64,000 bases of DNA from Candidatus Moraniibacteriota bacterium (GTDB taxonomy: Bacteria > Patescibacteriota > Minisyncoccia > Moranbacterales > GCA-2747515): the NCBI GenBank assembly GCA_038208115.1, contig JBBQZC010000003.1:2984-66983 (forward strand). The letters are read 5' to 3'. This document shows positions 13,131 to 61,561 of this stretch, piece by piece (position 1 is the first letter of the stretch; every line of letters begins with the position of its first letter). Made by a program: the position numbers and the translations under genes. Below the pieces are notes generated by a model. It searched no databases. It had not been told where the DNA came from and was given only the letters and a program-made list of their open reading frames with translations.

Positions 13131-13159
13131 AAGTCACCTCCTTATTTTGATTTTTGGAT

Positions 13160-14198: not shown

Positions 14199-14210
14199 AA
14201 TTAATTAAAA

Positions 14211-16044: not shown

Positions 16045-16086
16045 ATTTTTATTTTTTATTAATTACTTATTTATTAACTTATTCAC

Positions 16087-19573: not shown

Positions 19574-19588
19574 AATATCTCGTTTATA

Positions 19589-22693: not shown

Positions 22694-23021
22694 TAAAGAG
22701 ACTAAATTGTTAGCGTGTCTACAATACTTCACCGAAGCTTTTCTTGTAGTGAACACGGCTAATGAAAACTCTCTTTATTCATTAACCAAATATTATAGCA
22801 TATAATTGTATATTTGTCAATCATTTCGACGACTCCTGATCTACACATATGATTCATAAACCTTTATAATAAGGCATTATTTGACATTCTTCTCGTAGAC
22901 ATTTCTCTGTATTATCTATATAATAGATATACTGAATCACATGCATACATTCACAATATTATGCAGATTACGCACAAACCCTTTGCACAATATAGTGTTA
23001 TAAAAAATTATAAAATTTCCT

Positions 23022-32939: not shown

Positions 32940-32943
32940 AAAT

Positions 32944-39091: not shown

Positions 39092-39125
39092 AAACAAAGT
39101 CATGATATATATTATGACTTTGTTT
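39092..39125. terminator. bidirectional rho-independent terminator
   Basis: AAACAAAGTCATGATATATATTATGACTTTGTTT. Confidence 0.6.
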
Positions 39126-40275: not shown

Positions 40276-41484
40276 TTGCGTATCAAACGCCTCAAAAAAC
40301 TCCATTTTTTATTGATCACGTTGATTGATAAAATTCAAAACCTCTTTTATACAATCGAAAGATTTGTAATCGTTTTTTTTCGAAAAAAATCTTTTTATGG
40401 ATTAAGCAAATACATTAGACAAAATGGTAGCTTAACAGTATTAGTAAGTATAGGCACGATGATTATTGTTGGAAATATTTCAGCAAAAAGTAACGATGAT
40501 TCTTTTCTCATTGGCCACTGGAAATCTCAAAAAATACAAAAAGTTTTAACTTATAGGGATGACAAAAGCATTATTCTTGACGGTTATTTTATTAACGATT
40601 CAACGTCTGAAATTGCTTCTTCGGAAGAAAAAAGAAGTGCAGGTGCAAGTAATCAGCTTGGTATGTTGGCAAATGCAGATGAAGAGTTGCTCGGTGACAC
40701 TATAGCCATACCACCTAGACGAGATGGTGCTAGTGATCCGAGCAATGAGGGCGATGTTATCCTTTACACGGTTCAAGATGGAGACACATTTAGCACGATT
40801 GCGCAGAAACACAATATCACTACTTCGACATTATTTTGGGCTAATGAAATAGAAAATATTGACGATATCAAGCCAGGAGATACAATTTTTATTTTACCTG
40901 AGTCTGGTTTAAAGCATAAAATTAAATCTGGAGAAACAATAGAAAAGCTTGCAAAGGAATATAACGTAAATGAAAGCGAGATTATTTCTTACAACACACT
41001 TCCTGCAAATGGTGAACTGACAATTGATGCAGAAATATTTATACCTGGTGCTCAAAAGGAAATACCCAAGCCAAAACCAGATCCGCTCTTTGCTCCGCGA
41101 GATTATGTAGCCACTGGTAGTGGCAGCACAAATCTCGGAAGTTCTATTGTGAAAAATAATGCCAAGGCACGTCGTGCAGGAAATAGTTTTCCTTATGGGT
41201 ACTGTACGTATTATGTTGCAAATAAAAGATCTGTCGCATGGCGAGGTAATGCTGGTGCGTGGCTATATAATGCAAAATCAGCTGGCTATGCAACTGGCAA
41301 AAAACCGCAAGCAGGAGCAATCGTTGTTACAACAGAGGACGCAAGATATGGCCACGTTGCTTACGTGGAGTCAGTTGGTGATGGTATTATTACCATATCA
41401 GAAATGAATTATAAAGGATGGGGTGTAGTTAACACACGCACATTAAGTCAAAATGCACGTGTGATCCGTGGATACATTTATTAA
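40276..41484 (+). CDS. LysM-repeat plus CHAP-domain peptidoglycan hydrolase
   Basis: Two LysM motifs (YTVQDGDTFSTIAQKHNI, HKIKSGETIEKLAKEYNV); C-terminal CHAP with Cys (GYCTYYV) and His (YGHVAYV). Start uncertain. Confidence 0.7.
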   Translation: MRIKRLKKLHFLLITLIDKIQNLFYTIERFVIVFFRKKSFYGLSKYIRQNGSLTVLVSIGTMIIVGNISAKSNDDSFLIGHWKSQKIQKVLTYRDDKSIILDGYFINDSTSEIASSEEKRSAGASNQLGMLANADEELLGDTIAIPPRRDGASDPSNEGDVILYTVQDGDTFSTIAQKHNITTSTLFWANEIENIDDIKPGDTIFILPESGLKHKIKSGETIEKLAKEYNVNESEIISYNTLPANGELTIDAEIFIPGAQKEIPKPKPDPLFAPRDYVATGSGSTNLGSSIVKNNAKARRAGNSFPYGYCTYYVANKRSVAWRGNAGAWLYNAKSAGYATGKKPQAGAIVVTTEDARYGHVAYVESVGDGIITISEMNYKGWGVVNTRTLSQNARVIRGYIY

Positions 41485-42166: not shown

Positions 42167-42250
42167 GCCCAGGTGGCGGAATTGGTATACGCACTAGGTT
42201 GAGGGCCTAGACTCCTCTGGGGTGTGCGGGTTCAAGTCCCGCCCTGGGCA
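42167..42250 (+). tRNA. tRNA-Leu (anticodon GAG)
   Basis: Acceptor GCCCAGG/CCTGGGC, anticodon loop TTGAGGG, long variable arm, T-arm GCGGG-TTCAAGT-CCCGC. Confidence 0.7.
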
Positions 42251-42299
42251 CAAGTGAACTATTGGAATGATCTAATAAATGTAGTATAGTATAAAATAT

Positions 42300-42373
42300 G
42301 CACGCTTAGCTCAGCTGGTTAGAGCATCTCGTTTACACCGAGAGGGTCGGGGGTTCGAATCCCTCAGCGTGCA
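42300..42373 (+). tRNA. tRNA-Val (anticodon TAC)
   Basis: Acceptor GCACGCT/AGCGTGC, D-loop AGCTGGTTAGAGC, anticodon loop TTTACAC. Confidence 0.7.
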
Positions 42374-42402
42374 CATCATCTTTGATATAAACATAAAGAT
42401 GG

Positions 42403-42474
42403 GCCGAGGTAGCTCAGTGGTAGAGCAAAGGACTGAAAATCCTTGTGTCGAGAGTCCGATTCTCTCCCTCGGCA
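42403..42474 (+). tRNA. tRNA-Phe (anticodon GAA)
   Basis: Acceptor GCCGAGG/CCTCGGC, anticodon loop CTGAAAA. Confidence 0.7.
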
Positions 42475-42485
42475 CATATGATTGA

Positions 42486-42557
42486 GGGACTATAGCTCAG
42501 CGGTAGAGCGCGCGGCTCATAACCGCTTGGTCGCAGGTTCGAACCCTGCTAGTCCCA
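42486..42557 (+). tRNA. tRNA with CAT anticodon (elongator Met or lysidine-modified Ile2; G1-C72 is paired, so not the initiator)
   Basis: Acceptor GGGACTA/TAGTCCC, anticodon loop CTCATAA. Confidence 0.65.
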
Positions 42558-42657
42558 CTGATTGTAGTAATATGTAAAGTTAAAAGGACAAAGTTTATAA
42601 AAATAACCCAACAACTACACTTTATAAGCTTTCATCTTTACAAATTTTACATAGACT

Positions 42658-42733
42658 GCGAGTGTCGTATAGTGGTTATTACACCACCTTGCCAAGGTAG
42701 AAATGGCGGTTCGATTCCGCTCACTCGCTCCAA
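42658..42733 (+). tRNA. tRNA-Gly (anticodon GCC), CCA encoded
   Basis: Acceptor GCGAGTG/CACTCGC, anticodon loop TTGCCAA, T-loop TTCGATT, 3' TCCA. Confidence 0.65.
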
Positions 42734-45737: not shown

Positions 45738-46130
45738 TTATATACAACACTTAAAGCACTTACATCCATCTTTTTGTATCAAATCTTGAACATACTCAAT
45801 ACCATAGTCATACGTAAATTCCTCACCCTTTGTGATATCACGTATAGCATAGATCATAATGTGCTCATCATCTTCGATCACAGCCTCACAATTTGGATCA
45901 CAGGCGTGATTAATATAGCGAGCTGTATGGTTTCTCCCCTTACCATCCAGAACGGTCTCTGCGTTCAATATAAAAAGATATCGACCTCCGCGACGATCTG
46001 CCTCATCGTGCGTAATAGATTCACCGGTATATTCTATTACATGATTGCCTTTTGTGATATTTTGTTCGGCAAATAAACCCAGTCCTGCTGATGAACGCTT
46101 TATTGTATATTTTTTTGCACGTATGTCCAT
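45738..46130 (-). CDS. SET-domain protein (130 aa)
   Basis: RYINHACDPNC and EEFTYDY SET motifs; C-terminal post-SET CKCFKCC. Confidence 0.7.
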   Translation of the reverse strand: MDIRAKKYTIKRSSAGLGLFAEQNITKGNHVIEYTGESITHDEADRRGGRYLFILNAETVLDGKGRNHTARYINHACDPNCEAVIEDDEHIMIYAIRDITKGEEFTYDYGIEYVQDLIQKDGCKCFKCCI

Positions 46131-47249: not shown

Positions 47250-47439
47250 ATGGGTAACAATATAATATTTAAGGTAAATTCTATCATACACCATTTTAAC
47301 AAATAACTCAACTATTCACTATAAAATAATTATAACGACCACAATTTATAATATAAATAAATGTGAATAATTATTCACCTATTATGCACAATTATCTATT
47401 TCGTCTTTAAATCTGTGTATAACTTGTGTAAAGCGTGTA

Positions 47440-47670
47440 TAATTACTTGTGGATATTACTGTATAATTTCGTGGATAAAAAATCTCTTTTGTGGATAAGT
47501 ATCTCACTTTATACCTCAAAAAAGTTATCCACATTCACACGCACATATACACATAGTTACCCACAGTCACTATTTTCATCTCTATAAAAAGGTTTTCAGG
47601 AATATCCACTTATACATATACTAATAGTAATAATTAATTATATAAATATAATATAATATAAATAGACTAC
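47440..47670. promoter_or_regulatory. DnaA-box cluster plus AT-rich unwinding-element-like tract (candidate oriC or DnaA-regulated region)
   Basis: Perfect boxes TGTGGATAA (47490-47498) and TTATCCACA (47525-47533). Near-matches TGTGGATAT (47449), CGTGGATAA (47470), TTACCCACA (47557). Then TAATTAATTATATAAATATAATATAATATAAATAG. Confidence 0.55.
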
Positions 47671-47812
47671 AAATTCATCTACATTCAGATATCAAAGCAT
47701 CAAATAAATACTTTCAAAACAATTTGTAAATAGTAAATTCATAAATAGAATTATTTTTTGTCTTTCTTACAAATTATGATATAATGCATTTGTTAAATTT
47801 GTATACAAAAAA

Positions 47813-49804
47813 GTGTTCAAAAAAAATATACATAAAAATTGTTATAGAATACTCGTTTTTAGTTTTTTCCTTTTTTCTTTTATTCAAATAAATTTTTTAG
47901 TAAATAATGATTTTGTGAATTATTGCTATGCTGTAAATCCAGAACCGAAAACTGAAAATTTAAACGAAGGTGCAAATGTTGAAATAAGTGGTAATCCATT
48001 TTTTCAAGTAGTTGCAGGTATTTTAATAGGTATAATAAGATTATTTGCTATTTTTATTACAACTGGTGTTGCATTGATTCAATTAACCTTGAAACCGGAA
48101 TTTCAAACAATTATAGCAAATGATGCTATATTAGCTGGATGGAAAACAGTGCGAGATATCTTGAATATATTTTTTATATTTTTTCTCCTCTACTCCGCAT
48201 TTTGCACAGTATTTCAAATATCAAAATATCATATTAAAAGTACATGGGTGATGATTGTAGTGATGGCTCTTTTGGTGAATTTTTCATGGCCAGTTACACG
48301 GGTAATGATCGATGTATCAAATGTTGCGATGCAATATATTATTGGAGATAAAGGTATAGATACAAGTAATAGTCTTTTTGCTAAATTTGGTAAAGAATCA
48401 TCAGTACTACATCTTGTCATTTCAACAAGTGGGACTGATTCGAGTGATGAAAATATAGTTCAAATTAAAAATAAAGAAGGAGTTTTTACTAGTCTGCTTA
48501 TGGGAATTGTTGCGAGCGCATTATTTGCGTTTACGATTTTTGCTGTAGCATTTATGCTTGTGGTACGTGTTATTGCTTTGGCTATTTATCTTGTATTTGC
48601 ATCAGTAGGCTATACACTTGCAGCTTTTCCTGGGACATCATCTTATTCTAGTAAATGGTGGGATGGGTTTATGAAACAGTTGATAGTAGGTCCAATTCTC
48701 CTTTTTTCATTACTTTTAGCAGCTAATGTGCTTGATGCTTTAAAAAAATCCAGTTTTACAAGTGCTATGAGTGAGGCGGCAAAAGCAAATGGTGGAATGG
48801 CTAGTTTATTGCAATATTTAGTTGCGATTTTATTGATTTGGTCAAGTATTATTGCATCTCAAGAAGTAGGTGCACAGGGTTCGAGTATGGCTTTGGGTTT
48901 TGCACATAAAATGAGAGGAAAAGTTCAAGGAGTAGCAAAGGGTATTGGTAAAACTGCAGATTATGGAATGGCGAGAATGACGAATAGAATGGCGGGGTCA
49001 CAAAATAAGGGTGCGGCATTTATAGGAAAAGGCATGGGATTAGTGAGAAGTGTGCCAGATAGAGTAGGAAATATGAAGAAGGAATCAAAGGAAAACTATG
49101 CAAAAGCATTAGAAACATCCAAAGCACATGGATTAGCTATAGGTGGTGATAAACTAGGTGGAGATAAAAATGCTGTTAATGCAAATATAGGAAAGCAAAT
49201 TGAAGAAAAGAAGAAAAAATTAAAAGAAACACCGTTGAATACAGCAACAAATATTGAGGCAGAGGCAAAAGCACAGCTCCTTATTGATAAAAAAGATGGT
49301 ATTAAGGAAGATGATATTAAAAACCTCATCAAATCCCTTGATAGCCTTGATGAAGACACAAAGAAGGCTGCCTTAAAAAAAGCAGGAAATGAAGGTTATG
49401 GCCATCTCACAGCGGCATATGAAGCAAATAAAGAGCATGAAGCAGAAGTTAAAAGTGAAAATCAAAGAAGAAACTTCCATAGTATGAGTGCATTAACACC
49501 TGCTGAAATACAAACAATGCGTGAAAATAAGATGAATGAGAAAATGAAATCTACATATGAAAATATGGACGGCAAAACAATGGCAAAACAAAAAATATTT
49601 ACTACTTATAAGAAATCTAATATTAGTTCACCTGATCATGATGCGACGGAACGTGCATATGTAGTAGCAGACGAGCATATTAAACGTACACTAAGAGGAA
49701 GAAACTTATTAGATTTTAATTCTGCTGCAGGAGCAGCAAATAGAAATAATGATATAAGAGAAGCTGCTAATAACTATAGCTTACTACATGGAGGGACGCC
49801 TTAA
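47813..49804 (+). CDS. polytopic membrane protein, VirB6/TrbL-like (putative T4SS inner-membrane component) with a long hydrophilic C-terminal tail
   Basis: At least 6 TM segments in the first roughly 350 aa, then a Lys/Glu-rich coiled tail; sits in a cluster with a VirB4 ATPase. Confidence 0.45.
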   Translation: MFKKNIHKNCYRILVFSFFLFSFIQINFLVNNDFVNYCYAVNPEPKTENLNEGANVEISGNPFFQVVAGILIGIIRLFAIFITTGVALIQLTLKPEFQTIIANDAILAGWKTVRDILNIFFIFFLLYSAFCTVFQISKYHIKSTWVMIVVMALLVNFSWPVTRVMIDVSNVAMQYIIGDKGIDTSNSLFAKFGKESSVLHLVISTSGTDSSDENIVQIKNKEGVFTSLLMGIVASALFAFTIFAVAFMLVVRVIALAIYLVFASVGYTLAAFPGTSSYSSKWWDGFMKQLIVGPILLFSLLLAANVLDALKKSSFTSAMSEAAKANGGMASLLQYLVAILLIWSSIIASQEVGAQGSSMALGFAHKMRGKVQGVAKGIGKTADYGMARMTNRMAGSQNKGAAFIGKGMGLVRSVPDRVGNMKKESKENYAKALETSKAHGLAIGGDKLGGDKNAVNANIGKQIEEKKKKLKETPLNTATNIEAEAKAQLLIDKKDGIKEDDIKNLIKSLDSLDEDTKKAALKKAGNEGYGHLTAAYEANKEHEAEVKSENQRRNFHSMSALTPAEIQTMRENKMNEKMKSTYENMDGKTMAKQKIFTTYKKSNISSPDHDATERAYVVADEHIKRTLRGRNLLDFNSAAGAANRNNDIREAANNYSLLHGGTP

Positions 49805-49822
49805 AATATGATCTATTAATAT

Positions 49823-51232
49823 ATGAAAGACGAACAAAAATATTATCCCATGTTAGCGGGTATTAGTGAAAAAGACATATTTAGTGAAGAAAGTTCACTA
49901 ATGTGGGAAAAATTTAACACAATGCCGATCAAAATACAAAAAATATTGAAATCTGATGAACTTACCGAATTTGTCTATAATATTGAAAAAAGATATCATT
50001 TTTCTGATAAACAAACAGAGGATTTTTCAGTTTTAGTAAGAAAATATTTCTTTAGGGAAATATCAGAAAATGAATTTGCACAAAAAGTATCCCAAATGTG
50101 TCATTCTACGACAGATGACGCGATTAAACTTTTTCGTGTAATTTTAGCAATTGAACCAAAAGAAGAATTAGAAGAAAACAAAGACGTTTCTTTAAAAAGA
50201 AATACGGTGCAAATTTCGTTTACCAACGCACTTGCTAATTATCCAAAGGTTAAGGAGCAGTTTATCACTGAACAACCAATCATCGCTAAACCATTTCTCC
50301 AACCACTCAAACCAACGCTCAAAAACTGGATTATGGTGTATGAAAAAATACTTGACGTCAGCCGTCACAATACAATTGAACGCGGTGATTTCGTATTTCG
50401 TGCAGAAGCAACAAATGGACTTACACACTCTGAACGTGCTGATCTGGCACACATATTACGTGCACGAGATGAAGATGGTCAGATAACGATAGATCGAGAT
50501 ACAAGTGAAATTGTCTTTGAGGAGCAAGGAGATGATATGCAAAACAAACCAGTTAATGAATCGCGAAATATTGTATCTGGAAGACAATCTATAATCGTAC
50601 CAAGGGCAAATTTGCAACAAAAAATGACACAAGTAAGTAATGATTCAGAAAATATACCACAGAGAAATACAATGTCACAAACAGTATATAGTCAAAATTC
50701 AGTATCAAAAAGAATGGATATGCCTGCGCAACAAAAAGTAGCACAGAAACCAGTGGAAAGAAAAAATTTTGGTATAATTAATGAGTCATCGTCAATAAGT
50801 ACGTCAAAAAAAGATCCAAATGAAAAGCAAAATCCAGTTTTTACTTCAGTCCAGGATGAAATCATCAAAAACCGTATGGAGATGCAGAAAAAAAATCAAC
50901 CTACACAAGTGATGACCGTAGAAGAACCACAAGTAGTATCACAGGATGTCCGACCAATCGGTACTCCAATACAAGGTATATTAGTTCATAAAAAAGAAGA
51001 TGTACAATCGGCGACAAATGCTCAGCCAATATCAAGTGTAACTACACCAACAAAAAAAGTTATTGATGAAAAACCATTATCGTTTGTAGCTGGAGAAATT
51101 AATTTTAGTTCAAATCATACATTACCATCAGAGATGCCACAAAAAAAACTATCAGCAAATTATCTCAACATATCACCTATTGGTGTAACGCATGTGATGA
51201 AAAAAAACAAAAAACAGAACAAATCAATGTAA
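49823..51232 (+). CDS. hypothetical soluble protein (469 aa) with a low-complexity C-terminus
   Basis: ORF only. Confidence 0.45.
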   Translation: MKDEQKYYPMLAGISEKDIFSEESSLMWEKFNTMPIKIQKILKSDELTEFVYNIEKRYHFSDKQTEDFSVLVRKYFFREISENEFAQKVSQMCHSTTDDAIKLFRVILAIEPKEELEENKDVSLKRNTVQISFTNALANYPKVKEQFITEQPIIAKPFLQPLKPTLKNWIMVYEKILDVSRHNTIERGDFVFRAEATNGLTHSERADLAHILRARDEDGQITIDRDTSEIVFEEQGDDMQNKPVNESRNIVSGRQSIIVPRANLQQKMTQVSNDSENIPQRNTMSQTVYSQNSVSKRMDMPAQQKVAQKPVERKNFGIINESSSISTSKKDPNEKQNPVFTSVQDEIIKNRMEMQKKNQPTQVMTVEEPQVVSQDVRPIGTPIQGILVHKKEDVQSATNAQPISSVTTPTKKVIDEKPLSFVAGEINFSSNHTLPSEMPQKKLSANYLNISPIGVTHVMKKNKKQNKSM

Positions 51233-51417
51233 AATTTATGACAGCAAGATATTATTATATCCACCTAATCTATCTAAAAGATGAGGAATTCTTATTTTCA
51301 TATAAAAAAGGAAAATGAATAAAGAAGCATCTGTTAGATTTTTTTATTTTATCAAGTGCTTTATAAAAAATTGATTTAATGGTATGATAAAAAAGAAGAA
51401 AAAATAAAATAAAAATT

Positions 51418-51879
51418 ATGCAGATTGTACCACAATATATTGATGTTGAAGATAAAATAGCAGGACCGCTCACGTGGAAACATATTGGTTGGATGTTTGC
51501 TGGTGGAGCAGTTTTATTGTTTGCATTCACTTTATTAGATACTACAACTTTTATTATTGCAGCAGTGCCGATTACTATATTTACGGGAGCGCTTATTTTT
51601 TATCGACCGAGTGGGGTGCCATTGGTACAATTCATCGGATTTGGATTTACATATCTTTTTCGTCCAAAAGTGTATACGTGGCAACGTGAAGACACGTTAT
51701 ACACACAGAAAAAAAAGAACAAAGTAATGCATATTGAGACTACGAGTGAAAAAAAACACTTAGGCGAGAATGATATGCATGCAATTGCACAAATGCTTGA
51801 TACACGTGGAACGGAGCGCAGTGATCGTCTTCAACAGTTGATCAGAGAAAGTAAAAGAGAATCACAACATAAAAAATAA
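51418..51879 (+). CDS. small membrane protein, VirB3/PrgI/TcpE-like
   Basis: Two-TM topology (WMFAGGAVLLFAFTLL, FIIAAVPITIFTGALIFY) immediately upstream of VirB4, as in Gram-positive-type T4SS. Confidence 0.4.
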   Translation: MQIVPQYIDVEDKIAGPLTWKHIGWMFAGGAVLLFAFTLLDTTTFIIAAVPITIFTGALIFYRPSGVPLVQFIGFGFTYLFRPKVYTWQREDTLYTQKKKNKVMHIETTSEKKHLGENDMHAIAQMLDTRGTERSDRLQQLIRESKRESQHKK

Positions 51880-51891
51880 TTTGATATTGAT

Positions 51892-52575
51892 ATGGACTTA
51901 TTAGGATCAACTTCACAAAATAGTGGATTAAGCACACTGAAGTATGTGGATATTAAAACAATTAAAGATGGAGTAGTTGTGCTTAAAAACGGTTCTTTAA
52001 GAGCTGTTTTACTTGTGTCATCGATTAATTTTGATCTTAAATCATCTGATGAACAAATAGCTATTGTTGGCGCATATCAAAACTTCCTTAATTCACTAGA
52101 TTTTCCTATTCAAATATTGGTTAGTTCACGTAAATTGAATATTAGTGCATATCTAGATATGCTTAAAGAGAAGTCGAGAGAACAGCGCAATGAATTGTTG
52201 AAAATTCAAATTATTGAATATAGGGAATTTATTCAAAAACTCACAGAAGTGACAAATATTATGAGTAAATATTTTTATCTTGTCGTACCATTTGCACCAG
52301 TGGAAAATGAATCAGAAGGAATTCTCGGTAAAATCTCACATGTATTTAATCCTGAGGAAAATATTACAGAACATGAGGAGTTATTTGAAACGTACAAAAA
52401 TCAACTATGGCAACGAGTAGATCATGTTGCGGCAGCTCTGGGAGGAACAGGATTACATTTCACAGCGTTGAATACGGAAGAGCTCATTGAAATGTATTAT
52501 GGTATGTATAATCCATCAGAATATTCGCAGACGACAATAAAGAATGTTATAGAATCAGATGTGGAACAAATGTAA
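51892..52575 (+). CDS. VirB4/TraC-family ATPase, N-terminal domain (separate ORF)
   Basis: VirB4-like N-terminus (DIKTIKDGVVVLKNGSLRAVLLVS); ends with TAA 24 nt before the ATPase-domain ORF. Confidence 0.55.
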   Translation: MDLLGSTSQNSGLSTLKYVDIKTIKDGVVVLKNGSLRAVLLVSSINFDLKSSDEQIAIVGAYQNFLNSLDFPIQILVSSRKLNISAYLDMLKEKSREQRNELLKIQIIEYREFIQKLTEVTNIMSKYFYLVVPFAPVENESEGILGKISHVFNPEENITEHEELFETYKNQLWQRVDHVAAALGGTGLHFTALNTEELIEMYYGMYNPSEYSQTTIKNVIESDVEQM

Positions 52576-52599
52576 AAATAATTATTTGTAGGGATTGAT

Positions 52600-54411
52600 A
52601 TGTTATTCAACAAAAAAGCAAATACACAACAAAATAATGAGACTGTAGAGAATGATAAATTTTATCAAGAAGGTGTTGCTACGGTTCGAGGACTTATTGC
52701 TCCAAGCGCATTACAAATTCAAGCAGATCATTTACAAATTGGCGATGTGATGGCAACAACAGTTTTTGTGATGGCATACCCTCGCTTTTTAAGTGATAGT
52801 TGGTTCGCACCAATCATTAATATTGATTTTCCGATGGATATTTCAATGTTTATTCATCCTGAAGATTCACGCGATGTGCTTAAAACACTGAGAAAAAGTG
52901 CAGCGCATGTGCATTCACAGATTGATATTGAGTCGCGTAGTGGAAAGGTAACTGATCCAATGTTGGAAACGGCTATAGAAAACATTGAGACTCTTCGTGT
53001 GAGTTTGCAACAAGGAACAGAGAGATTTTTCCGTTTTGGCTTGTATATTACACTTTATGCTGATACAAAAGCAGTGTTGCAAAAAAGAAAAAGTGAGATT
53101 GAGGCAATTTTAGAAGCCCAGCTAATTTATTGTAAACCTGCTATATTACGAATGGAACATGGTTTTGCGTCGACAATTCCACTTGGGAATGATCGACTGA
53201 ACGTAGGAACAAACCTCAATACAGCACCACTCTCGACAACCTTTCCTTTTGTGTCATCCAGCCTGTCATCCAACGAAGGAATTTTATATGGAATTAATCG
53301 TCATAACAATAGTCTGATATTATTTGATCGGTTCAATATGGAAAATGCTAATATGGTGGTTTTTGCAAAATCAGGTGGCGGAAAAAGCTATTTTGTAAAA
53401 TTGGAAATATTACGATCCCTAATGATTGGCGTTAATGTAATAGTGATTGATCCAGAAAGTGAATATAAACATCTCTGTCAAACTGTCGGCGGTACATATA
53501 TTCAAATATCACTTGGATCAAATGCACACATCAATCCATTTGAACTACCAGCAATACCTAAGGACGAAAAGCAAGTTGATGTATTTAGAAACACAATAGC
53601 GAGCTTGATCGGATTGATGCATATCATGCTGGGTAGTGTAACAGCGGAAGAAGATACGGTGCTCGAACGTGCCATTCGTGAAGCCTATGCAGTGCGCGAT
53701 ATCACAGAGGATAGTCATTTTGGAGGTATACCACATTCAGGATATCCGACAATGGCAGATCTCTATGAGGTACTGCGATCAATGGATGGTGGTGATTCAT
53801 TAGGTAAGAGACTATCGAAATATACAGAGGGTATTTTTTCTGGATTTCTTAATAATCCAACGAATATTGAGGTAAATAACCAGATGATTGTATTTAATAT
53901 TCGAGATTTGGAAGAGGAATTGCGACCAATTGCGATGTATATGGTTTTGCAGTTTATCTGGAATGAGATGCGTACAAATATGACACGCAGAATTGTAGCT
54001 GTGGATGAGGCGTGGGTCATGATGCAAAATGATGATGCGGCAGCCTTTTTATTTGGTATTGCAAAAAGATGTCGTAAATATTATACTGGCCTCACAACGA
54101 TCACACAGGACGTAAGTGATTTTATGACAAGTCGCTATGGTAGACCAATTGTGACCAATTCATCTCTACAACTCCTTCTCCGTCAATCACCAGCCTCTGT
54201 GGATGTGATTGCGGAAACATTTTACCTGACAGATCATGAGAGATTTCTTCTGCTTGAAAGTAATGTGGGAGAGGGTATTTTATTTGCAGGACCTAAGCAT
54301 GCAGCTATCAAAATCATATCTTCATACGCAGAAGATCAAATCATTACTTCTGATCCGAGACAGCTTGCTGAAATAGAGAAGGCAAAGGAAGAAATAGATA
54401 ATGAAAAATAA
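52600..54411 (+). CDS. VirB4/TrbE/CagE-family type IV secretion ATPase, C-terminal NTPase domain
   Basis: Walker A VVFAKSGGGKSYF and Walker B IVAVDEAW, the DEAW motif characteristic of VirB4. Confidence 0.75.
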   Translation: MLFNKKANTQQNNETVENDKFYQEGVATVRGLIAPSALQIQADHLQIGDVMATTVFVMAYPRFLSDSWFAPIINIDFPMDISMFIHPEDSRDVLKTLRKSAAHVHSQIDIESRSGKVTDPMLETAIENIETLRVSLQQGTERFFRFGLYITLYADTKAVLQKRKSEIEAILEAQLIYCKPAILRMEHGFASTIPLGNDRLNVGTNLNTAPLSTTFPFVSSSLSSNEGILYGINRHNNSLILFDRFNMENANMVVFAKSGGGKSYFVKLEILRSLMIGVNVIVIDPESEYKHLCQTVGGTYIQISLGSNAHINPFELPAIPKDEKQVDVFRNTIASLIGLMHIMLGSVTAEEDTVLERAIREAYAVRDITEDSHFGGIPHSGYPTMADLYEVLRSMDGGDSLGKRLSKYTEGIFSGFLNNPTNIEVNNQMIVFNIRDLEEELRPIAMYMVLQFIWNEMRTNMTRRIVAVDEAWVMMQNDDAAAFLFGIAKRCRKYYTGLTTITQDVSDFMTSRYGRPIVTNSSLQLLLRQSPASVDVIAETFYLTDHERFLLLESNVGEGILFAGPKHAAIKIISSYAEDQIITSDPRQLAEIEKAKEEIDNEK

Positions 54412-54687
54412 TATAACAAAAGAGGTTTGTAAAAACCTCTTTTTTAGTGTGTGATATTGCATGTGAAGTTGTATGTGTTTTGTAATAATAACAATCATAT
54501 ATGAAAAATGATAAAAATATTTGGGAATTAACTCCTAATCTCGTTATTACAAATTTTGTAATTGATTCATTGTCAAAAAGACATTCACAAGAAATACATT
54601 TAAGTAGTGTTTATTCACTGTATATCGAAATGTATTTATTAAAAAATGAAACAATCATAAAGAAACCTCGCAATTGTTAGTAGTTAC

Positions 54688-55470
54688 GTGTATAATATAG
54701 AAAGAAATAATGAAAATATGAGCACATCAAGAGCATCAACAAATCCAGAAAACATTGCCATCTATGCGGAGAGAGCGCGCAATCTTCAGCGTGCTCGTCA
54801 GAAGAAAAATATCACGCAAGAGACGCAGTCACAGAAATATACAGAACAATTGAGTAAACAAATTCAAAGAAGCAGATATTTTCAAAATAGTGATACTCAG
54901 AATTTTGCAGATAAACCAGGTGGCGAAAGTAGTGATAGTCAGAAAAAAAATAACATACGATTAATTCAAAAAGATTTACATGGCGAAATACAGGATGATG
55001 AATTACATCAAATAACAGATGATGTGTCAGATGTTTTTACAAGTTCAAAAATAATGCTTCCAGTAAAAATAGCTCAACTAGCTGTGCATTCTCGCGCTGC
55101 ATTGAAAGATTATACTAGCAAATGGTGGATTGTTGCGTTTGCATTTGCTATTTTTAAAGACCTCGCACTCGATCCAACAATCCATCAAATACCAGCATTA
55201 GGATGGTTTGTTGCATGCTGTTTTACGATTGGATTTATCATTTTTTTATTTGGAGGTGGATTTTTTAGGAAGTTAGGCAAAAAGATGATTGCAAAAATCA
55301 TTTTTTCGATTATTATTGATATGATCCCATTTGTAAACATACTATTTCCTGGAACAACAATAGCTGTATTAGTACGATGGGATGGGTCAAAAAAAGATGC
55401 AAAAAAAGCAGAACAAAATGTGAAAAGAATTAGAGAAAAGTATGCAGAATATGATACAATGAATGAATAA
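54688..55470 (+). CDS. membrane protein (260 aa; hydrophilic N-terminus, 3 TM segments)
   Basis: ORF in the T4SS-like cluster. Confidence 0.45.
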   Translation: MYNIERNNENMSTSRASTNPENIAIYAERARNLQRARQKKNITQETQSQKYTEQLSKQIQRSRYFQNSDTQNFADKPGGESSDSQKKNNIRLIQKDLHGEIQDDELHQITDDVSDVFTSSKIMLPVKIAQLAVHSRAALKDYTSKWWIVAFAFAIFKDLALDPTIHQIPALGWFVACCFTIGFIIFLFGGGFFRKLGKKMIAKIIFSIIIDMIPFVNILFPGTTIAVLVRWDGSKKDAKKAEQNVKRIREKYAEYDTMNE

Positions 55471-55508
55471 GATGTGATATAATAATACATATAAAAAAAA
55501 TAGTAAAT

Positions 55509-56150
55509 ATGAATCAAGAAATTATAAAACAATTAACACATTTTTGCTTTGCGCTTGCTTGTGTTGCTTTATTTTTTTTCTTCCCTGTGTCAGAATATCG
55601 ATTTGAAGTTTTAGTTAGCGTCGTAACTTTTTTACTGGTGATGCCAGTAATTTATACAAAGGTCGTTTTGCATAAAGATTTGAGGGAGATGGGTTTTTGG
55701 TCTTTTCGGATAGAAAAAAAAGAAATTTTTATGTTGACGGCCTCAGTAATAATTGGTGGTTTATTGGGCTTTGTGATGATTGCGATGAAGTGGGGTGTGG
55801 CTTCATATGTTGGGATGTTACCTGGCGCTGTTTTATACAACTTTGGAGGATTTGTCGTCTATGAGTTAGTTTTTGTTTCAGCAATCCTCTTTCTTTTTAC
55901 TGTGATTGTGTGGGGATTTGTGTTTAATTGCACATGGCATGATCATCGTATTGCGTTCATATCTGGAAGTGTCTTATTTATTGTTCTATTATATAGCTTT
56001 TATCAAAATATATTTATCATCATTCCCTTGCTCAGTCCTGTAGTTATATTATACAAAAAACGATTTACTTATAACATTATCTATCTTTTTTTAGCATTCT
56101 TTCTAATAAGTCTTATTATAGATACGATGATCGTGCGGTCATTATCATAA
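55509..56150 (+). CDS. polytopic membrane protein (213 aa)
   Basis: About 6 predicted TM segments. Confidence 0.45.
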   Translation: MNQEIIKQLTHFCFALACVALFFFFPVSEYRFEVLVSVVTFLLVMPVIYTKVVLHKDLREMGFWSFRIEKKEIFMLTASVIIGGLLGFVMIAMKWGVASYVGMLPGAVLYNFGGFVVYELVFVSAILFLFTVIVWGFVFNCTWHDHRIAFISGSVLFIVLLYSFYQNIFIIIPLLSPVVILYKKRFTYNIIYLFLAFFLISLIIDTMIVRSLS

Positions 56151-56199
56151 TATAATTTAGACAATCGAGATGGAATTTTTAATAATAAAAACTGTGGCC

Positions 56200-59154
56200 A
56201 TGAAAAAAATATTTCAAGCAACTGCAATAATTCAAATCATTTTTTTTATAATAAATCCTGTAACAGCATACGCTGTTACAAAAGAAGAGGTGGCTGATCC
56301 TGTGGGATCTTCCATTAAATCTAATGGATCCTCTGCTGTTTCAGGTCAAGTGCGCAAAGGTATAAATAGTTTCCTCGAGGACGATCTCAATATGAATGTA
56401 GAGGAGAGTTTAAAGCCCCTTACAGAGGGCATAAATAGTGTTGATCGCAAAGGAAAAATACCTCGTACAACTATAAGATTTTCTACACCAAACCCAAAAC
56501 CGGGCGATATGCTTACAGCAAGTGCAGAAGTGGAAGGGATCGCAAATGCTGATAAAGCATACTACACATGGTTTTTGAAAAGAAGTAGCGATGAATCATA
56601 TGATCCACCACAGCGTATGCATGAGAATGCCGTAAAAGCACAAGCATCAATCTATTATGATCCAGAAATGCGTGATCAGAGATTTAATCAAGGCATGCCA
56701 ACAGAAGGAGATGAGGATACTTTCGATGCGCCATTGGGTGGTAAAGATACTGGATCAGAAGATAAATACTGTTATATTTATGATACAAAAGACGGAAAAC
56801 AATATGAGATAGTCGGCGGAGATAGTTCTCCCGCAAATTTGGCTTGTGATGAGGGGTACATTCCGCGATGTATGATAGATAATAATGCGTTACAATGTCC
56901 TCTGATAATTGAGCCAATCACGGGAACAACGTCCAGCTCGTCATCAGGTTCAGGCTCAGGCTCGAGTACAAATACTCAAGCAGATACTAGTTCTTCATCA
57001 TCTTCATCTGCAAGTACGACTCTCAGTGGTGGTGGTGGTGCACGTAATCAAGTCCGCACACGCTGTCTCGAAACAGAAGAAACACCATACTGTGATGAAA
57101 ATTCAGGCACACTACAATGTGGGGAATCAGGACAATTATACAGTTATGAAGGTGAAATTACTATATCCACACCTTTTTGTGTACGCGTTATTGATACACG
57201 TTTGTGGTTGGATCCAAATGTGAACGGATGTAATATGGCAACAGATGAAAATGGTGAGTATATTTATCAAGGAGCTGGCTGTTTAAGTGAGCCTAATGCA
57301 GAAAACGTCAAAATACCAGCTAATAAATGTGATATTGCATCACAAGAAGAAACAGTCTGTAGTGAGGATGCAGGTGTATTTAGCAGAGAAGACACAAAAG
57401 ACATGGGTCCTGCTGTTGAAGAGCGATATGGTCTCAATCCAGCAGATGATCGTACTACACCTCTCGCAGATAATGATGGGCAACTTATTGCAGGTGTAAA
57501 TCAACAACAGTTCACGTGGCAGTATGAAGAAGGTGATGAAATCACCGTTGTTGTAGAAGGACAGGGTTCAGAGTCTACAAAACATGAAAATTCATCGTAT
57601 CAAACGGTATTTGCAATGATAGAACCCGGTTGTCAGGAGATTTTGGAAGAAGACTCAGCGTCAAAATCTTCATACGAAGAAGCTGTAAAGGAAAAAGTAG
57701 TTACACACTTAACGGCAATTGTAAATCCTGTGGAGTGTATTTCTCCAAAAATGTACGTCAAGCCAGGCACAAGTGAGTACGACTCTCTCAAGGTAGACGT
57801 GTCACAAGGCTATAATGAGGAAGCATCAGTTGCAAGTGGATTGGGGCAGCCAATGCACGTCACGGCATCAGCAGGGCAGACGCAGGGCGGATCCATATCT
57901 TCTCCAACACATCTGTATTATGATTGGACAGTAACGTGTAATAATGGTAGTGAAGTGATAGATATCACGGATAAATTGGAGGGTCTTTCACAAACGTCAG
58001 GCATGAATATTCCAGCATTGGATTTTGTAGCCGATTTTCCTGATGGAACAGCAGATGAAAATGGTAATCCAACAGAAAACTGTTTTAATCCAACAGACGG
58101 ATCTAGTAAAGTAGAGGTGACAGCAAAAATCAATGAGCCCCGCAAAGGAGGGGGAAGCAATTTTGGCAAATCAACACAGATTTTCACTATATACAATGCA
58201 GTTGAGAGTCAACTGGAGGCATATAAAACAACTGTAAATGCGGATGGCAAATATAGCCCTACAGCCACCTCGATTTGCATAGATGGTATCGACAAAACAT
58301 TTTGTCGCGTTATGAACAACGAGGTGATTGCGCTGAGGGCTAAGGAAAGCAAAGATACAGGAGATTATGCAGAGCCAGGAATGCTATCATGGCAGGTAAA
58401 TGATAAGACATATGTGTGTGATACAAACATATCAGAAGATTGCATAAATAGTGTTGGCACATCAAACACAAATACGGATACGATTCTTGTGCCAATGAAT
58501 GGACGTGATGGAGATTTTATTACAGTTGCTGCTCAAGTCAATGAGGTAGATATTGATAAAAATGAATCAAAACAACTGATGCGTGTATTTCGGGTCACAG
58601 AGCCATCTGTGACAATCGAGCCAGTAACGAATGTTGTAAAAAAGGTGCTAGGCACATATACGAATCTCGATGAAAAAAAATTTCTAGATGAGTCAAATAA
58701 TGTTTTTATTGCACAAAAAGGAAAAGAAATAACACTAAAGGCAATTCTGGAGCCAAGTTTTCTCAATACAGCGAACACAGGACCAAAGTTGACATATGAA
58801 TGGTTGGTAGACGGTCAAATATATGATACGGATAATGAAATCACATTTATTCCTGAAAGTGAAACGACAATAACAGTAAAAGTGGCACAAGCACTTGAAA
58901 ATGTGGACCGCAAAGCATTAAAAGAAGTTTTTAATGCAGGTATGAAAGACACACAGGTGCAATCATATAAAAAGACTGTAGAGATTGAGTTTAGTAAAGA
59001 AGACCTTATTGCGAATTCGGGAGTAACTGGTTTTTTTGCCACTGCATCACATAACGCACCAGAATATTTGATTTTTATCTTGAAGATGACGATGCTTATG
59101 GGTATTATGCTACTCATTCCATCACTCGTGCTCAGCGTAGGAAAAAGTGCATAA
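56200..59154 (+). CDS. large (about 985 aa) Cys-rich secreted or surface protein with a signal peptide, Ser/Gly/Thr linker and C-terminal TM anchor
   Basis: Signal peptide MKKIFQATAIIQIIFFIINPVTAYA; SSSSSGSGSGSS linker; many Cys; C-terminal hydrophobic segment IFILKMTMLMGIMLLIPSLVL. Confidence 0.55.
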   Translation: MKKIFQATAIIQIIFFIINPVTAYAVTKEEVADPVGSSIKSNGSSAVSGQVRKGINSFLEDDLNMNVEESLKPLTEGINSVDRKGKIPRTTIRFSTPNPKPGDMLTASAEVEGIANADKAYYTWFLKRSSDESYDPPQRMHENAVKAQASIYYDPEMRDQRFNQGMPTEGDEDTFDAPLGGKDTGSEDKYCYIYDTKDGKQYEIVGGDSSPANLACDEGYIPRCMIDNNALQCPLIIEPITGTTSSSSSGSGSGSSTNTQADTSSSSSSSASTTLSGGGGARNQVRTRCLETEETPYCDENSGTLQCGESGQLYSYEGEITISTPFCVRVIDTRLWLDPNVNGCNMATDENGEYIYQGAGCLSEPNAENVKIPANKCDIASQEETVCSEDAGVFSREDTKDMGPAVEERYGLNPADDRTTPLADNDGQLIAGVNQQQFTWQYEEGDEITVVVEGQGSESTKHENSSYQTVFAMIEPGCQEILEEDSASKSSYEEAVKEKVVTHLTAIVNPVECISPKMYVKPGTSEYDSLKVDVSQGYNEEASVASGLGQPMHVTASAGQTQGGSISSPTHLYYDWTVTCNNGSEVIDITDKLEGLSQTSGMNIPALDFVADFPDGTADENGNPTENCFNPTDGSSKVEVTAKINEPRKGGGSNFGKSTQIFTIYNAVESQLEAYKTTVNADGKYSPTATSICIDGIDKTFCRVMNNEVIALRAKESKDTGDYAEPGMLSWQVNDKTYVCDTNISEDCINSVGTSNTNTDTILVPMNGRDGDFITVAAQVNEVDIDKNESKQLMRVFRVTEPSVTIEPVTNVVKKVLGTYTNLDEKKFLDESNNVFIAQKGKEITLKAILEPSFLNTANTGPKLTYEWLVDGQIYDTDNEITFIPESETTITVKVAQALENVDRKALKEVFNAGMKDTQVQSYKKTVEIEFSKEDLIANSGVTGFFATASHNAPEYLIFILKMTMLMGIMLLIPSLVLSVGKSA

Positions 59155-59195
59155 AGTATGATATACTAAGTGGAGAGAATAATAAAAATAAAGTC

Positions 59196-60437
59196 ATGAA
59201 GATGAAGAAAAATCTAAGAGTGTTTATCTTTGCTTTTTTAATATGCATATGTTTTACGATAGCTTCACAAAAGGTTTTTGCTGCTGATGGTTATCAATTA
59301 TTAGAGAGTATGCCAGGCGTAGGTGATGCAAAGAGTGCAGCTCCTCAATTTCCTGTGTATATTTCAAAAATGTATAATTTTTTTGTTGCTTTTGTAATCA
59401 TAGCAGCTCTTCTCATGGTGACTATTGGTGGTTTTTCGTACATTCTTTCAGCGGGAAATCAAGCCCAGGCTGGTACAGCAAAAAAAATAATCACTGATGC
59501 TCTGATAGGTCTTGTAGTAGTATTTATATCATGGCTGGTATTAAACACTATCAACCCTGATTTACTAAATACAAATCCAAATATGAGCTCATTACAATCA
59601 GGAGCTAAAAGTACTGATAAAGCCGGTGACGATACGACGATTAACAATACAAGTACAGTTACGCATGATGGTAAAAATTATGCAACAAATGAGGAATGTA
59701 AAGCTCAAGCAAATATATCAAGTGATTGCACGCCATTGCAAAATTCATATGATAATTCTCAACATTATGTGCAGGATCCCGCAACTGGTAAGTGGCATGA
59801 AGCAACTGATCAGGAGTGTCTCAATAATCCATCAAACTGTAAATTAGGTAGTAATATAATAGCTGATGATTTTAATACACCTAAAACGTCAGGGAGTGTA
59901 GAAAGTGATTTGAGAAATGGTAATATCGTTCGTGCCGATCACAACAATACAAATGGAGATCAGCCAAGTGTGGAAGGATTGCCACCAGTTACGGTAAAGG
60001 CAGCAACGGATTTGATGGCAGAAACTGGATGTACAACTGCAGATACATGTCCAAAAATTGTCGGTGGGACAGAAAAATATGGAGACGGAGCAAATCGTAT
60101 AGATGTAGATGAAAAAGCGACATTAGGTGGTCTTGGTGACTCGGATTTTCTCAATAGTGTACAAGACAATGCAGTCGAAACTGGTACGAGCACCAAAAAA
60201 AACGGAGCAAATACACTAAATATAACAACATATGTATATCCAGAAGGACACGCTCTTGCAGGCCAAAGAGTTGATTGGGTCAAAGAAACTGATGCTAGTG
60301 GCTCTAAGGTCAGAGAATATAACACAATATATGCGACAAAAGAAAACCCACCTGCAAAGCCAGTTACACCAGAGGTGCCTGAGTATAACTATAATGAAAT
60401 AACGCTACAGATAAGAAAACATATAATTAACGTTTAA
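59196..60437 (+). CDS. pilin-like protein with VirB2/TrbC-like topology (signal peptide plus two hydrophobic helices) and an unusually long C-terminal extension
   Basis: Signal peptide ...VFAADG, then FFVAFVIIAALLMVTIGGFSYILSAGNQAQAGTAKKIITDALIGLVVVFISWLVLNTI, then about 300 aa of hydrophilic extension. Confidence 0.4.
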   Translation: MKMKKNLRVFIFAFLICICFTIASQKVFAADGYQLLESMPGVGDAKSAAPQFPVYISKMYNFFVAFVIIAALLMVTIGGFSYILSAGNQAQAGTAKKIITDALIGLVVVFISWLVLNTINPDLLNTNPNMSSLQSGAKSTDKAGDDTTINNTSTVTHDGKNYATNEECKAQANISSDCTPLQNSYDNSQHYVQDPATGKWHEATDQECLNNPSNCKLGSNIIADDFNTPKTSGSVESDLRNGNIVRADHNNTNGDQPSVEGLPPVTVKAATDLMAETGCTTADTCPKIVGGTEKYGDGANRIDVDEKATLGGLGDSDFLNSVQDNAVETGTSTKKNGANTLNITTYVYPEGHALAGQRVDWVKETDASGSKVREYNTIYATKENPPAKPVTPEVPEYNYNEITLQIRKHIINV

Positions 60438-60439
60438 CT

Positions 60440-61561
60440 ATGATCATCAAAAAAGTCTTTATAATTTCAACTATCTTGCTTCTTGTCATTGTTGTTTTTT
60501 TTGGTATTTATGTTATTGCATTTAAACCAGAAGCTACACAGAAGGTTGTTGAAAATATTGGTAGTAGCGTAGATATTGCTGATGTTGTATCAGAGAAAAT
60601 CACAAATATTACATCAGATTCAGTTGTTTCTGCGGCACTAGGACCAAATAACGATACAATTCAATATGTAGATGCTATAAGTGGACGTGTATGGACAATG
60701 ACACTCCGGGGATCAAATAAGGAGGCGCGGGCTATTGAAGCAAAGGGTGTGCCACTAAGTGTGAAGTGGTCTCAAAAAGGAGATTCAGCCATAATGCAAT
60801 ATGCAGACAAAAGCACCTATGTGAATAATTTTGTAACAAATGGACAAAATCGTTTGCGAGATGGAATGGACGATGTTGTGTGGGCAAATATGGATGGCAA
60901 AATCCTTTATAAATACTATGATGAAAAAAACAAAGAGCGATCTCTTAACATTGCAAATGCAGATGGCACAAATTGGAAAAAAATTGCTGAGCTGCCTTTC
61001 CGAGAAACAATGTTTGCACAGGTGCCACTATCGATATTTGTCGCATATTGGCCAAAAGCACAGTCTAGTGTATCTACAGAGTTATTTACTGCTAACACTA
61101 TTAGTGAGGGAGAAAGTAAAAAAATTTTTAGCGGTGTCTTTGGCGCTGACTTTCTTTTTGCACCAGATGGAAAGACTGTGCTTATTAGTTCTGTTAAGAG
61201 TGATAAAAAGTCTATTTCACTTGCAGTTATGGATAGTAATGGTCAAAATTATAATGACCTCCTCGTTCCAACATTTGTGCAAAAAGTCGTATGGTCAAAA
61301 GATGGAAAATCAATATACTACGCACAACCAACAGAAATACCGACTTCCAGTGTATTGCCAGAAGATTATCAGAATGGAAATTTTACAACCAAAGACACCT
61401 TTTATAAAATGGATATAACGACAGGCAAAAAACAGCGTATAATCGATTTGCCGGAAATAAAAGACAAAATGGACGCATATAATCTATTTTTATCACCAAT
61501 GGAAGATACTCTCTATTTTATTAACAAAGAGGACCATTTGTTATATCGCATTACTATGTAA
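60440..61561 (+). CDS. membrane-anchored protein with TolB-like beta-propeller repeats
   Basis: N-terminal TM segment; repeated DGK/S..Y hydrophobic-blade motifs (DGKILYKY, DGKTVLISS, DGKSIYYAQ). Confidence 0.45.
   Translation: MIIKKVFIISTILLLVIVVFFGIYVIAFKPEATQKVVENIGSSVDIADVVSEKITNITSDSVVSAALGPNNDTIQYVDAISGRVWTMTLRGSNKEARAIEAKGVPLSVKWSQKGDSAIMQYADKSTYVNNFVTNGQNRLRDGMDDVVWANMDGKILYKYYDEKNKERSLNIANADGTNWKKIAELPFRETMFAQVPLSIFVAYWPKAQSSVSTELFTANTISEGESKKIFSGVFGADFLFAPDGKTVLISSVKSDKKSISLAVMDSNGQNYNDLLVPTFVQKVVWSKDGKSIYYAQPTEIPTSSVLPEDYQNGNFTTKDTFYKMDITTGKKQRIIDLPEIKDKMDAYNLFLSPMEDTLYFINKEDHLLYRITM

Follow-up and report, generated by a model that had tools for sequence, protein, structure and literature searches.

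A ten-gene type IV secretion cluster in a Moranbacteria-like member of the Patescibacteria, with a stand-alone TrsD and conserved accessory genes

[quoted passage not shown] We examined a gene cluster of this kind in a 64,000-nucleotide stretch of DNA from a Moraniibacteriota bacterium (the window). At positions 47813-61561, on the + strand, ten co-directional open reading frames (ORFs; g1 to g10) are close-packed, with intergenic spacers of 2-41 nt except for 185 nt before the PrgI gene and 276 nt after virB4 (Table 1). All ten were recovered at the positions given in the original prediction, a reading made without database searches, which had described a T4SS-like cluster with VirB4, VirB3, and VirB2-like components. 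Searches with hidden Markov models (HMMs) supported that description, placing the PrgI, VirB4, and PF18895 pilin assignments above curated thresholds. We conclude that the type IV secretion cluster is genuine and that its ten genes are intact; clusters of this kind are known from the ultra-small Patescibacteria (the candidate phyla radiation, CPR), where they are considered to serve host contact and not plasmid transfer.

Table 1. Genes and candidate regulatory features of the cluster, in window positions
Feature	Positions	Strand	Basis
DnaA-box cluster, 8 boxes with at most 1 mismatch (2 perfect, TTATCCACA)	47362..47565		pattern match
Promoter-like site TTGTCT-16-TG-TATAAT, 28 nt before g1	47758..47785	+	consensus match only
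g1, VirB6/TrbL-like polytopic membrane protein, 663 aa	47813..49804	+	hydropathy, orthologues
g2, cytoplasmic protein, family unknown, 469 aa	49823..51232	+	homologues, AF2
g3, PrgI/VirB3-like protein with two transmembrane segments, 153 aa	51418..51879	+	Pfam PF12666
g4, TrsD/TraC-like stand-alone homologue of the VirB4 N-terminal region, 227 aa	51892..52575	+	HMM and homologues
g5, VirB4 ATPase, 603 aa, Walker A and Walker B intact	52600..54411	+	HMM and PDB match
Perfect palindrome AAAAGAGGTTTGTAAAAACCTCTTTT, 11-bp stem, 7 nt after the virB4 stop	54418..54443		pattern match only
g6, membrane protein, family unknown, 260 aa	54688..55470	+	hydropathy
g7, polytopic membrane protein, 6-7 transmembrane segments, family unknown, 213 aa	55509..56150	+	hydropathy
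g8, Cys-rich surface protein, 994 aa (984 aa from the second Met)	56170..59154	+	translation, hydropathy
g9, VirB2-like T4SS pilin with extracytoplasmic extension, 413 aa	59196..60437	+	PF18895
g10, N-terminally membrane-anchored TolB/PD40-like β-propeller, 373 aa	60440..61561	+	orthologue profile

For comparison, 77 related loci were retrieved with VirB4 from GTDB species representatives, and their ORFs were called and searched with iterated HMMs. Upstream genes were counted in the 50 loci with enough upstream sequence, and downstream genes in the 48 loci whose downstream sequence is 5 kb or longer. The gene order VirB6-g2-PrgI-TrsD-VirB4-g6-...-g10 recurs across the 77 loci, which come from diverse Paceibacteria. 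Their VirB4 proteins are 49-87% identical to g5, and the record titles are mostly Patescibacteria, with a few others. In other Moranbacteria genomes, the cytoplasmic proteins VirB4 (82-85%) and TrsD (74-78%) are far more conserved than the envelope proteins VirB6, g7, and g8 (31-51%). Such a difference would follow if the surface parts had to deal with a partner that changes. The Cys-rich regions are all extracellular by predicted topology, and g8, g10, and the pilin extension, which are predicted to lie outside the cytoplasm, diverge fast, consistent with contact with a host surface or wall.

VirB4 had been predicted to be divided into a 227-aa and a 603-aa ORF lying 24 nt apart, and this layout stood: the spacer is exactly 24 nt, after a TAA stop, and the 603-aa translation carries the Walker A motif AKSGGGKSY and the DEAW box. 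g5 matched the NCBIfam model conju_CD1110 at 354 bits (curated cutoff, 325) over model positions 171-729, with further Pfam matches to P-loop_TraG (E=4.7e-27), AAA_10, and DUF87. Its best solved structure was 4AG5, the C-terminal domain of VirB4 (E=2e-53), and TrwK was matched at E=2e-7. The protein is 82-87% identical to its Moranbacteria orthologues. g4 matched the N-terminal parts of VirB4 models, at positions 10-118 of conju_CD1110, 18-176 of TIGR00929, and 103-279 of VirB4_plasma (E=1.4e-9). Together, the two proteins tile full-length VirB4 models without overlap, and their sum of 830 aa compares with 823 aa for TrwK.

This split is not unusual in the lineage, and the proposed check of reads across it is not needed. 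In 49 of the 50 loci, virB4 is directly preceded by TrsD as a gene of its own, with spacers ranging from small overlaps up to a few tens of nucleotides. TrsD is a gene of its own in all 68 related loci with a full-length copy, and no TrsD-VirB4 fusion was found in the 77 related loci. Homologues of g4 numbered 5133 at E<=1e-3. In the best 120, lengths stay within 213-249 aa, identities are 57-100%, and the precomputed annotation PF26593 (TraC-like) is always present; those with names come from Moranbacteria or other Patescibacteria. The "split VirB4" is thus the normal, conserved two-gene form, TrsD plus VirB4, and not a lesion.

Some VirB4 orthologues are longer than the usual 580-640 aa, namely, those of L076 (7706-11155) and L077 (391-3825), with 1144-1149 aa, those of L022 and L023, with 773 aa, and that of L039, with 714 aa. 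TrsD is still a separate gene where the VirB4 orthologue is elongated. The added length suggests an intein or an inserted domain.

The membrane and cytoplasmic genes around this pair differ in how far they can be classified. For g1, a VirB6/TrbL-like protein with a 300-aa charged tail had been predicted. Hydropathy bore out the topology and the tail, showing about seven hydrophobic segments and, at the C terminus, some 300 aa of charged tail; the VirB6 label came by way of orthologues, those in L001 and L004 (37-39% identical over the full length) matching TrbL PF04610 at E=7e-6. A VirB6 profile found no match among PDB sequences. g1 homologues are present in 46 of the 50 loci. In L017, a Moranbacteria locus, three VirB6-like genes (738, 747, and 743 aa) occupy positions 308-8580 upstream of TrsD-VirB4. 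The two-segment VirB3/TcpE-like protein of the original prediction is g3, which scored 31.0 bits with PrgI (gathering score, 27) and matched TcpE at E=0.014. A g3 homologue is present in every one of the 50 loci.

g2 consists of a conserved two-domain N-terminal region of about 235 aa followed by a disordered low-complexity tail, with no transmembrane (TM) segment. Its N-terminal region has homologues in 707 representative clusters at E<=1e-3, and the best 150 of these are all without a TM segment. The AlphaFold (AF2) model of g2 is confidently two-domain (pLDDT 91.8). No Pfam family or PDB sequence was matched by g2, and comparison of the model with PDB folds gave nothing below E=0.19. A g2 homologue lies between VirB6 and PrgI in 37 of the 50 loci. 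Downstream of virB4, g6 combines a charged N-terminal region of about 150 aa with a TM hairpin (two TM segments) and a basic C-terminal tail. Its Pfam search gave a weak match to DUF4112 (E=0.0055), and a homologue directly follows virB4 in 27 of the 48 loci. g7 matched no Pfam or NCBIfam family. It is restricted to Moranbacteria-type loci (20 loci; 8 of the 48 counted downstream), where it nearly always lies directly upstream of g8. We considered g7 as a CPBP/exosortase-like enzyme acting on the "PEY plus TM plus basic" C terminus of g8 and dropped this as unsupported, as the g7 alignment has neither conserved His/Arg residues nor CPBP motifs.

The remaining three genes encode the surface components. 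The predicted Cys-rich surface protein of approximately 985 aa, with a Ser/Gly linker and a C-terminal anchor, was found as g8: it has a signal peptide, 20 Cys residues, a Ser/Gly-rich linker, and a C-terminal TM anchor, and a conserved motif, GFFAT..N.PEY..F.LK, precedes the TM end. A direct homologue search gave four matches, swamped by low-complexity words, and the g8 family was assembled from the related loci. The C-terminal approximately 620 aa are conserved in the family, with nine Cys invariant in 14 sequences, and the N-terminal half is variable and linker-rich. Relatives carry one to four paralogues per cluster, and the family occurs only in Moranbacteria-type loci. g8 had no Pfam match, and its profile found nothing among PDB sequences. 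In L005, four g8 paralogues lie at 2601-9956 and 12351-19706; the two largest (1346 and 1321 aa) are 97-99% identical at their ends (residues 1-353 and the last approximately 600) and divergent in the middle. L006 holds at least two copies (6921-9953 and 12357-13901). The pattern in L005 and L006 resembles cassette-like surface-protein variation.

A VirB2-like pilin N terminus fused to a long extension had also been predicted. g9 has a signal peptide with a predicted cleavage site after VFA, two TM helices, a SAGNQAQAGTAKK loop, and an extension of about 275 aa, with 8 Cys in total; the K-rich loop is predicted to be cytoplasmic and the Cys-bearing extension outside. Residues 56-119 matched T4SS_pilin PF18895 with 27.4 bits against a cutoff of 26.6. 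The family is small (about 30 homologues of 355-443 aa), with a highly conserved pilin core and four invariant Cys in the extension. In the AF2 model (pLDDT 72 overall), the extension is predicted to be folded (pLDDT 76-95), with no significant PDB match: the model gave only hits at E>=0.02 (hot-dog, NTF2-like, and β-lactamase folds), which we took as noise. A VirB8-like NTF2 domain in the extension is not supported, on the same grounds. The extended pilin is directly followed by g10 in L005, L006, and the window; L001 has two short pilins and no g10.

For g10, predicted as a TolB-like β-propeller, a profile built from 40 orthologues reached TolB structures at E~5e-12, over the propeller blades only (query residues 160-265). 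PD40 matched 22 of the 40 orthologues, and the window protein alone scored 19.4 bits, under the 20.9 threshold. The N terminus is a single TM anchor, with no match to the TolB N-terminal α/β domain. No Tol-Pal partner genes were found around g10, and the organism is a monoderm. A g10 homologue lies downstream of virB4 in 42 of the 48 loci, among them Moranbacteria, Yanofskybacteria, and Portnoybacteria.

The genomic setting was examined by scanning every window ORF of at least 120 aa against Pfam. No relaxase, type IV coupling protein (T4CP)/FtsK-like protein, VirB11, or second VirB4 was found among them, in agreement with the predicted absence of relaxase, VirD4, and VirB11. The other genes in the window are ordinary chromosomal ones, including those for FtsH, HisRS, NrdD, PNPase, KsgA, UvrD, an XerC/D-like recombinase, L19, tRNAs, RluD, and O-antigen-ligase-like proteins. 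The cluster is flanked by SET and RluD genes upstream and two Wzy_C genes downstream, as it is in the complete 1.29-Mb Moraniibacteriota genome CP175956.1, and this synteny is partly kept in L004, L005, and L006. GC content is uniform between the cluster and the neighboring sequence. L001 and L005 reach 8-10 kb past the cluster and contain no additional T4SS gene there.

The absence of relaxase and T4CP argues that the cluster is not a conjugation machine, and the syntenic housekeeping flanks indicate a vertically inherited chromosomal operon. The original prediction of a nonconjugative T4SS in a reduced-genome bacterium agrees with both. We consider it very likely that the locus is a chromosomal, vertically inherited T4SS of Moranbacteria-like Patescibacteria (class Paceibacteria), of the Patescibacteria-specific lineage derived from monoderm MPF-FATA conjugation systems, which serves host contact or contact-dependent exchange and not conjugative DNA export. 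Several observations weigh against this reading. g1 itself has no TrbL match at E<=1 in Pfam, its topology fitting VirB6, and no VirB8-like or VirB1-like gene is present in the cluster. g4 reached NCBIfam TrsD/TraD NF041427 at E=8e-6 with 25.8 bits, far under the cutoff of 200, and the TrsD profile matched no solved VirB4 N-terminal domain among PDB sequences. The pilin score of g9 exceeds the Pfam cutoff by less than 1 bit. g9 is the sole pilin of its type in the window, and if each of its subunits carries a 30-kDa domain, a VirB2-type helical filament may not be able to form. In addition, T4CP homologues lie far from virB4 in many Patescibacteria (PMC12102498), and a coupling protein could be encoded elsewhere in the genome. 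Three cell-wall hydrolase genes in the window were considered as VirB1 candidates (LysM-CHAP, 40276-41484; RpfB-like, 32905-33912; 3D-domain, 22226-22756) and left out, as they lie 6-25 kb off and none of them occurs in the sequenced 5-10 kb that precede the cluster in L001 and L004.

Two alternatives concern the integrity and mobility of the cluster. That VirB4 was broken by a nonsense mutation, frameshift, or assembly error and that the cluster is decaying might be read from two adjoining ORFs, 24 nt apart, which jointly span a full-length VirB4. However, the 227-aa protein belongs to the conserved stand-alone family of 5133 homologues and is separate in 68 of 68 loci, the ATPase ORF begins at a start codon of its own and retains its motifs intact, and stand-alone TrsD is also known from pGO1-type staphylococcal plasmids (PMC12102498). 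The conservation of TrsD as a separate gene excludes an artefact of frameshift or assembly, and we give the broken-gene explanation practically no weight. It is also very improbable that the cluster is the transfer module of an integrative conjugative element (ICE) or plasmid with its relaxase and T4CP just outside the window, the finding that the original prediction had named as one that would overturn it. VirB4 does fall in the CD1110 conjugal-transfer family, and the window contains a tyrosine recombinase gene (39112-40056) and a tRNA cluster (42167-42729). Nevertheless, the same housekeeping borders recur across genomes that share only 35-85% protein identity, GC content shows no anomaly, and no mobile-element border was found. 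The recombinase is XerC/D-like and about 8 kb off, behind cell-wall, ribosomal, tRNA, and radical-SAM genes, and the sequence 8-10 kb beyond the cluster in L001 and L005 is without extra T4SS genes. Relaxases are moreover rare in Patescibacteria (109 in 3035 genomes [PMC12102498]). An ICE at this locus can be regarded as ruled out by the flanks.

The other alternatives concern what the apparatus does. A dedicated machine for importing host DNA, nucleotides, or other macromolecules, like archaeal Ced or Helicobacter ComB, is a less likely reading that deserves serious consideration. Ced and ComB likewise operate without a T4CP or relaxase, of which the window has neither, VirB4 gave partial matches to CedB (E=4e-11) and CedD, and the authors of PMC12102498 favor import because these organisms cannot make nucleotides. 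However, the CedB match spans only about 85 residues of the shared P-loop domain (42 bits against a cutoff of 700), and competence in Southlakia needs ComEC, whereas the requirement for the T4SS there does not depend on ComEC (PMC12857230). Components of the CedA type or specific to ComB were not detected, and the direction of transport is unreadable from sequence. A surface adhesion organelle only, with pilus and adhesins and no translocated substrate, appears improbable, more so than import. In Agrobacterium, pilus biogenesis requires VirB4 and not the coupling protein, which counts in favor of such an organelle, as do the absence of a nearby T4CP and the many surface proteins that the cluster encodes (the pilin with its extension, the g8 paralogues with their variability, and the β-propeller). 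It would, on the other hand, have no need of a VirB6-like channel subunit with a long tail or of the cytoplasmic g2 and of g6, all of which are conserved, and Patescibacteria already adhere by type IV pili (PMC12857230). Protein export, import of host macromolecules, and an adhesive pilus alone are not decidable from sequence.

For the preferred reading, a T4SS for host contact or contact-dependent exchange, the parts could work together as follows. PrgI, the VirB6-like protein, and g6, joined by g7 in Moranbacteria, would form a membrane platform. TrsD would supply the module that forms the N terminus of single-chain VirB4 and there makes contact with VirB3 and the membrane, and TrsD and VirB4 together would constitute the ATPase, docked on PrgI, VirB6, and g6 at the cytoplasmic face. 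ATP-driven VirB4 would extract the Sec-inserted pilin from the membrane and polymerize it into a pilus or a short conduit through the wall. The disulfide-bonded pilin extension, variable g8, and membrane-anchored g10 would be the extracellular, host-facing part. The apparatus would thereby serve attachment to the host cell and contact-dependent exchange of macromolecules, and not conjugative DNA export.

A further, tentative proposal is that the accessory genes encode structural parts of a Paceibacteria-specific T4SS, which we think possible and somewhat unlikely. g10 would replace the VirB8/9/10-type wall-spanning scaffold, g2 and g6 would replace the T4CP as substrate receptor, and g8 and the pilin with its globular domain would be exchangeable host-recognition heads. 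If this is true, g8 and the pilin would set which host cell the episymbiont can tap.

The region directly upstream of the cluster, where the original prediction had placed a candidate oriC, contains the eight DnaA boxes that such a claim implies. The boxes, which include two of the three perfect ones in the window, lie within the 518-bp spacer upstream of g1, about 250-450 bp before that gene, and are followed by a very AT-rich stretch at ~47600-47720. GC skew changes from negative to positive within 40-48 kb. Comparable DnaA-box clusters occur upstream of the VirB6 gene in L001 (~4037), L004 (~3460), L010 (~2761), L011 (~508), and L012 (~1650), and in several Moranbacteria the cluster of boxes lies between RluD and the T4SS operon. 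No dnaA gene was found in the window, and dnaN is not adjacent either. The region 47362-47565 is a good oriC candidate; alternatively, it could be a DnaA-regulated promoter region controlling the T4SS operon. The palindrome in the 276-nt gap after virB4 may be a (bidirectional) terminator or attenuator that splits the ATPase half from the surface half, giving two transcription units.

Elsewhere in the window, two SET-domain (lysine methyltransferase-like) genes are present in this reduced genome, at 23022-23537 (+) and 45738-46130 (-), and the SET gene adjoining RluD is syntenic in L001. The block at 8800-14200 is ORF-poor, with only 50- to 142-aa ORFs on both strands, and has a GC content of 41-48% against ~35% in its surroundings. 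A 107-nt direct repeat occurs there in three copies (9655, 11363, and 12040), with a 32-nt core in four. No Rfam match was found in the block at E<=0.01, and its longest ORFs are without a Pfam match. It could be a small paralogous gene array, decayed genes, or foreign DNA. Among the related loci, L007, L010, L015, L023, L037, and L073 come from metagenome-assembled genome records titled Micavibrio, Bdellovibrionales, Pseudobdellovibrionaceae, or Gammaproteobacteria, yet carry a Moranbacteria-type cluster, with VirB4 identities of 69-87% (52% for L073). These titles are probably taxonomic mislabels of Patescibacteria bins.

At class level, the locus adds nothing new. It shows, for a lineage without a cultivated member (Moranbacteria/Paceibacteria), which genes accompany the T4SS core: a near-universal membrane-anchored β-propeller, a cytoplasmic protein with a confidently predicted fold and no PDB match, fast-evolving Cys-rich surface proteins, and a domain-displaying pilin. 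In g2, g8, g10, and the extended pilin there are concrete candidates for the scaffold, the substrate receptor, and the host-recognition parts that are missing, and it is these conserved, unannotated accessory genes that merit follow-up.

The closest known systems are those of the Patescibacteria themselves. An apparent T4SS with pilins and without a recognizable relaxase or T4CP is required by Southlakia for growing epibiotically (Wang et al. 2023, PMC10633639), and in Southlakia epibionticum SEML1_0006-0019 the order is VirB6-like protein, PrgI, a hypothetical protein in the TrsD position, and VirB4 (PMC10633639). VirB4 was reported in 2417 of 3035 Patescibacteria genomes, where its sequences are monophyletic within MPF-FATA (Quinonero-Coronel et al. 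2025, PMC12102498), with TrsD, PrgI/VirB3, VirB6, and PF18895/VirB2-like pilins near it, relaxases almost absent, and a location near dnaA/oriC in Paceibacteria (PMC12102498). A 2025 review repeats this description (PMC12857230). The window cluster shares the core and its order (a VirB6-like protein, PrgI/VirB3, stand-alone TrsD, and VirB4), a PF18895 pilin in the cluster, the lack of a nearby relaxase or T4CP, and a chromosomal position near a DnaA-box/oriC region with KsgA nearby (here, 33916-34722). It differs in having a single pilin, which bears a 275-aa extension, where the others have short pilins in an array, in the addition of g7 and the large Cys-rich g8 family, and, relative to Southlakia, in having no lysozyme or peptidase gene directly downstream of virB4. 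Compared with the systems of PMC12102498 and PMC10633639, it also carries g2 and g10, both widespread in Paceibacteria loci.

With the monoderm MPF-FATA systems (pGO1/pSK41 Trs, pCF10 Prg, and CTn2 CD1110), the cluster shares the VirB4 family, above the CD1110 cutoff, a PrgI-type VirB3, a separate TrsD beside VirB4 as in pGO1, and the absence of outer-membrane core components. In contrast to them, the cluster encodes no relaxase, T4CP, VirB1-like hydrolase, VirB8-like protein, or PrgB-type adhesin. It does encode a VirB2-like pilin, absent from Gram-positive systems, and it is chromosomal and vertically inherited, not mobile. The T4SSs that lack a T4CP (Bordetella Ptl, Brucella VirB, Helicobacter ComB, and archaeal Ced) are likewise driven by VirB4, with no adjacent T4CP or relaxase, and are put to nonconjugative use. 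However, Ptl, Brucella, and ComB have diderm VirB7/9/10 cores and Ced has CedA-type channels, and TrsD, the β-propeller anchor, and g8-like proteins occur in none of them. The likeness is confined to VirB4.

Neither the TolB-like β-propeller nor g2 is mentioned in PMC12102498, PMC10633639, or those of their supplements that were searched, where the sole "propeller" (in the supplements of PMC10633639) is a DNA gyrase annotation. The components for which we found no description are the membrane-anchored β-propeller, the g2 family, the Moranbacteria-specific g8 family, and the pilin with a 275-aa folded extension, all with putative functions. For Patescibacteria, the architecture as a whole has been published before (PMC10633639, PMC12102498, and PMC12857230), and only the accessory surface genes go beyond it.

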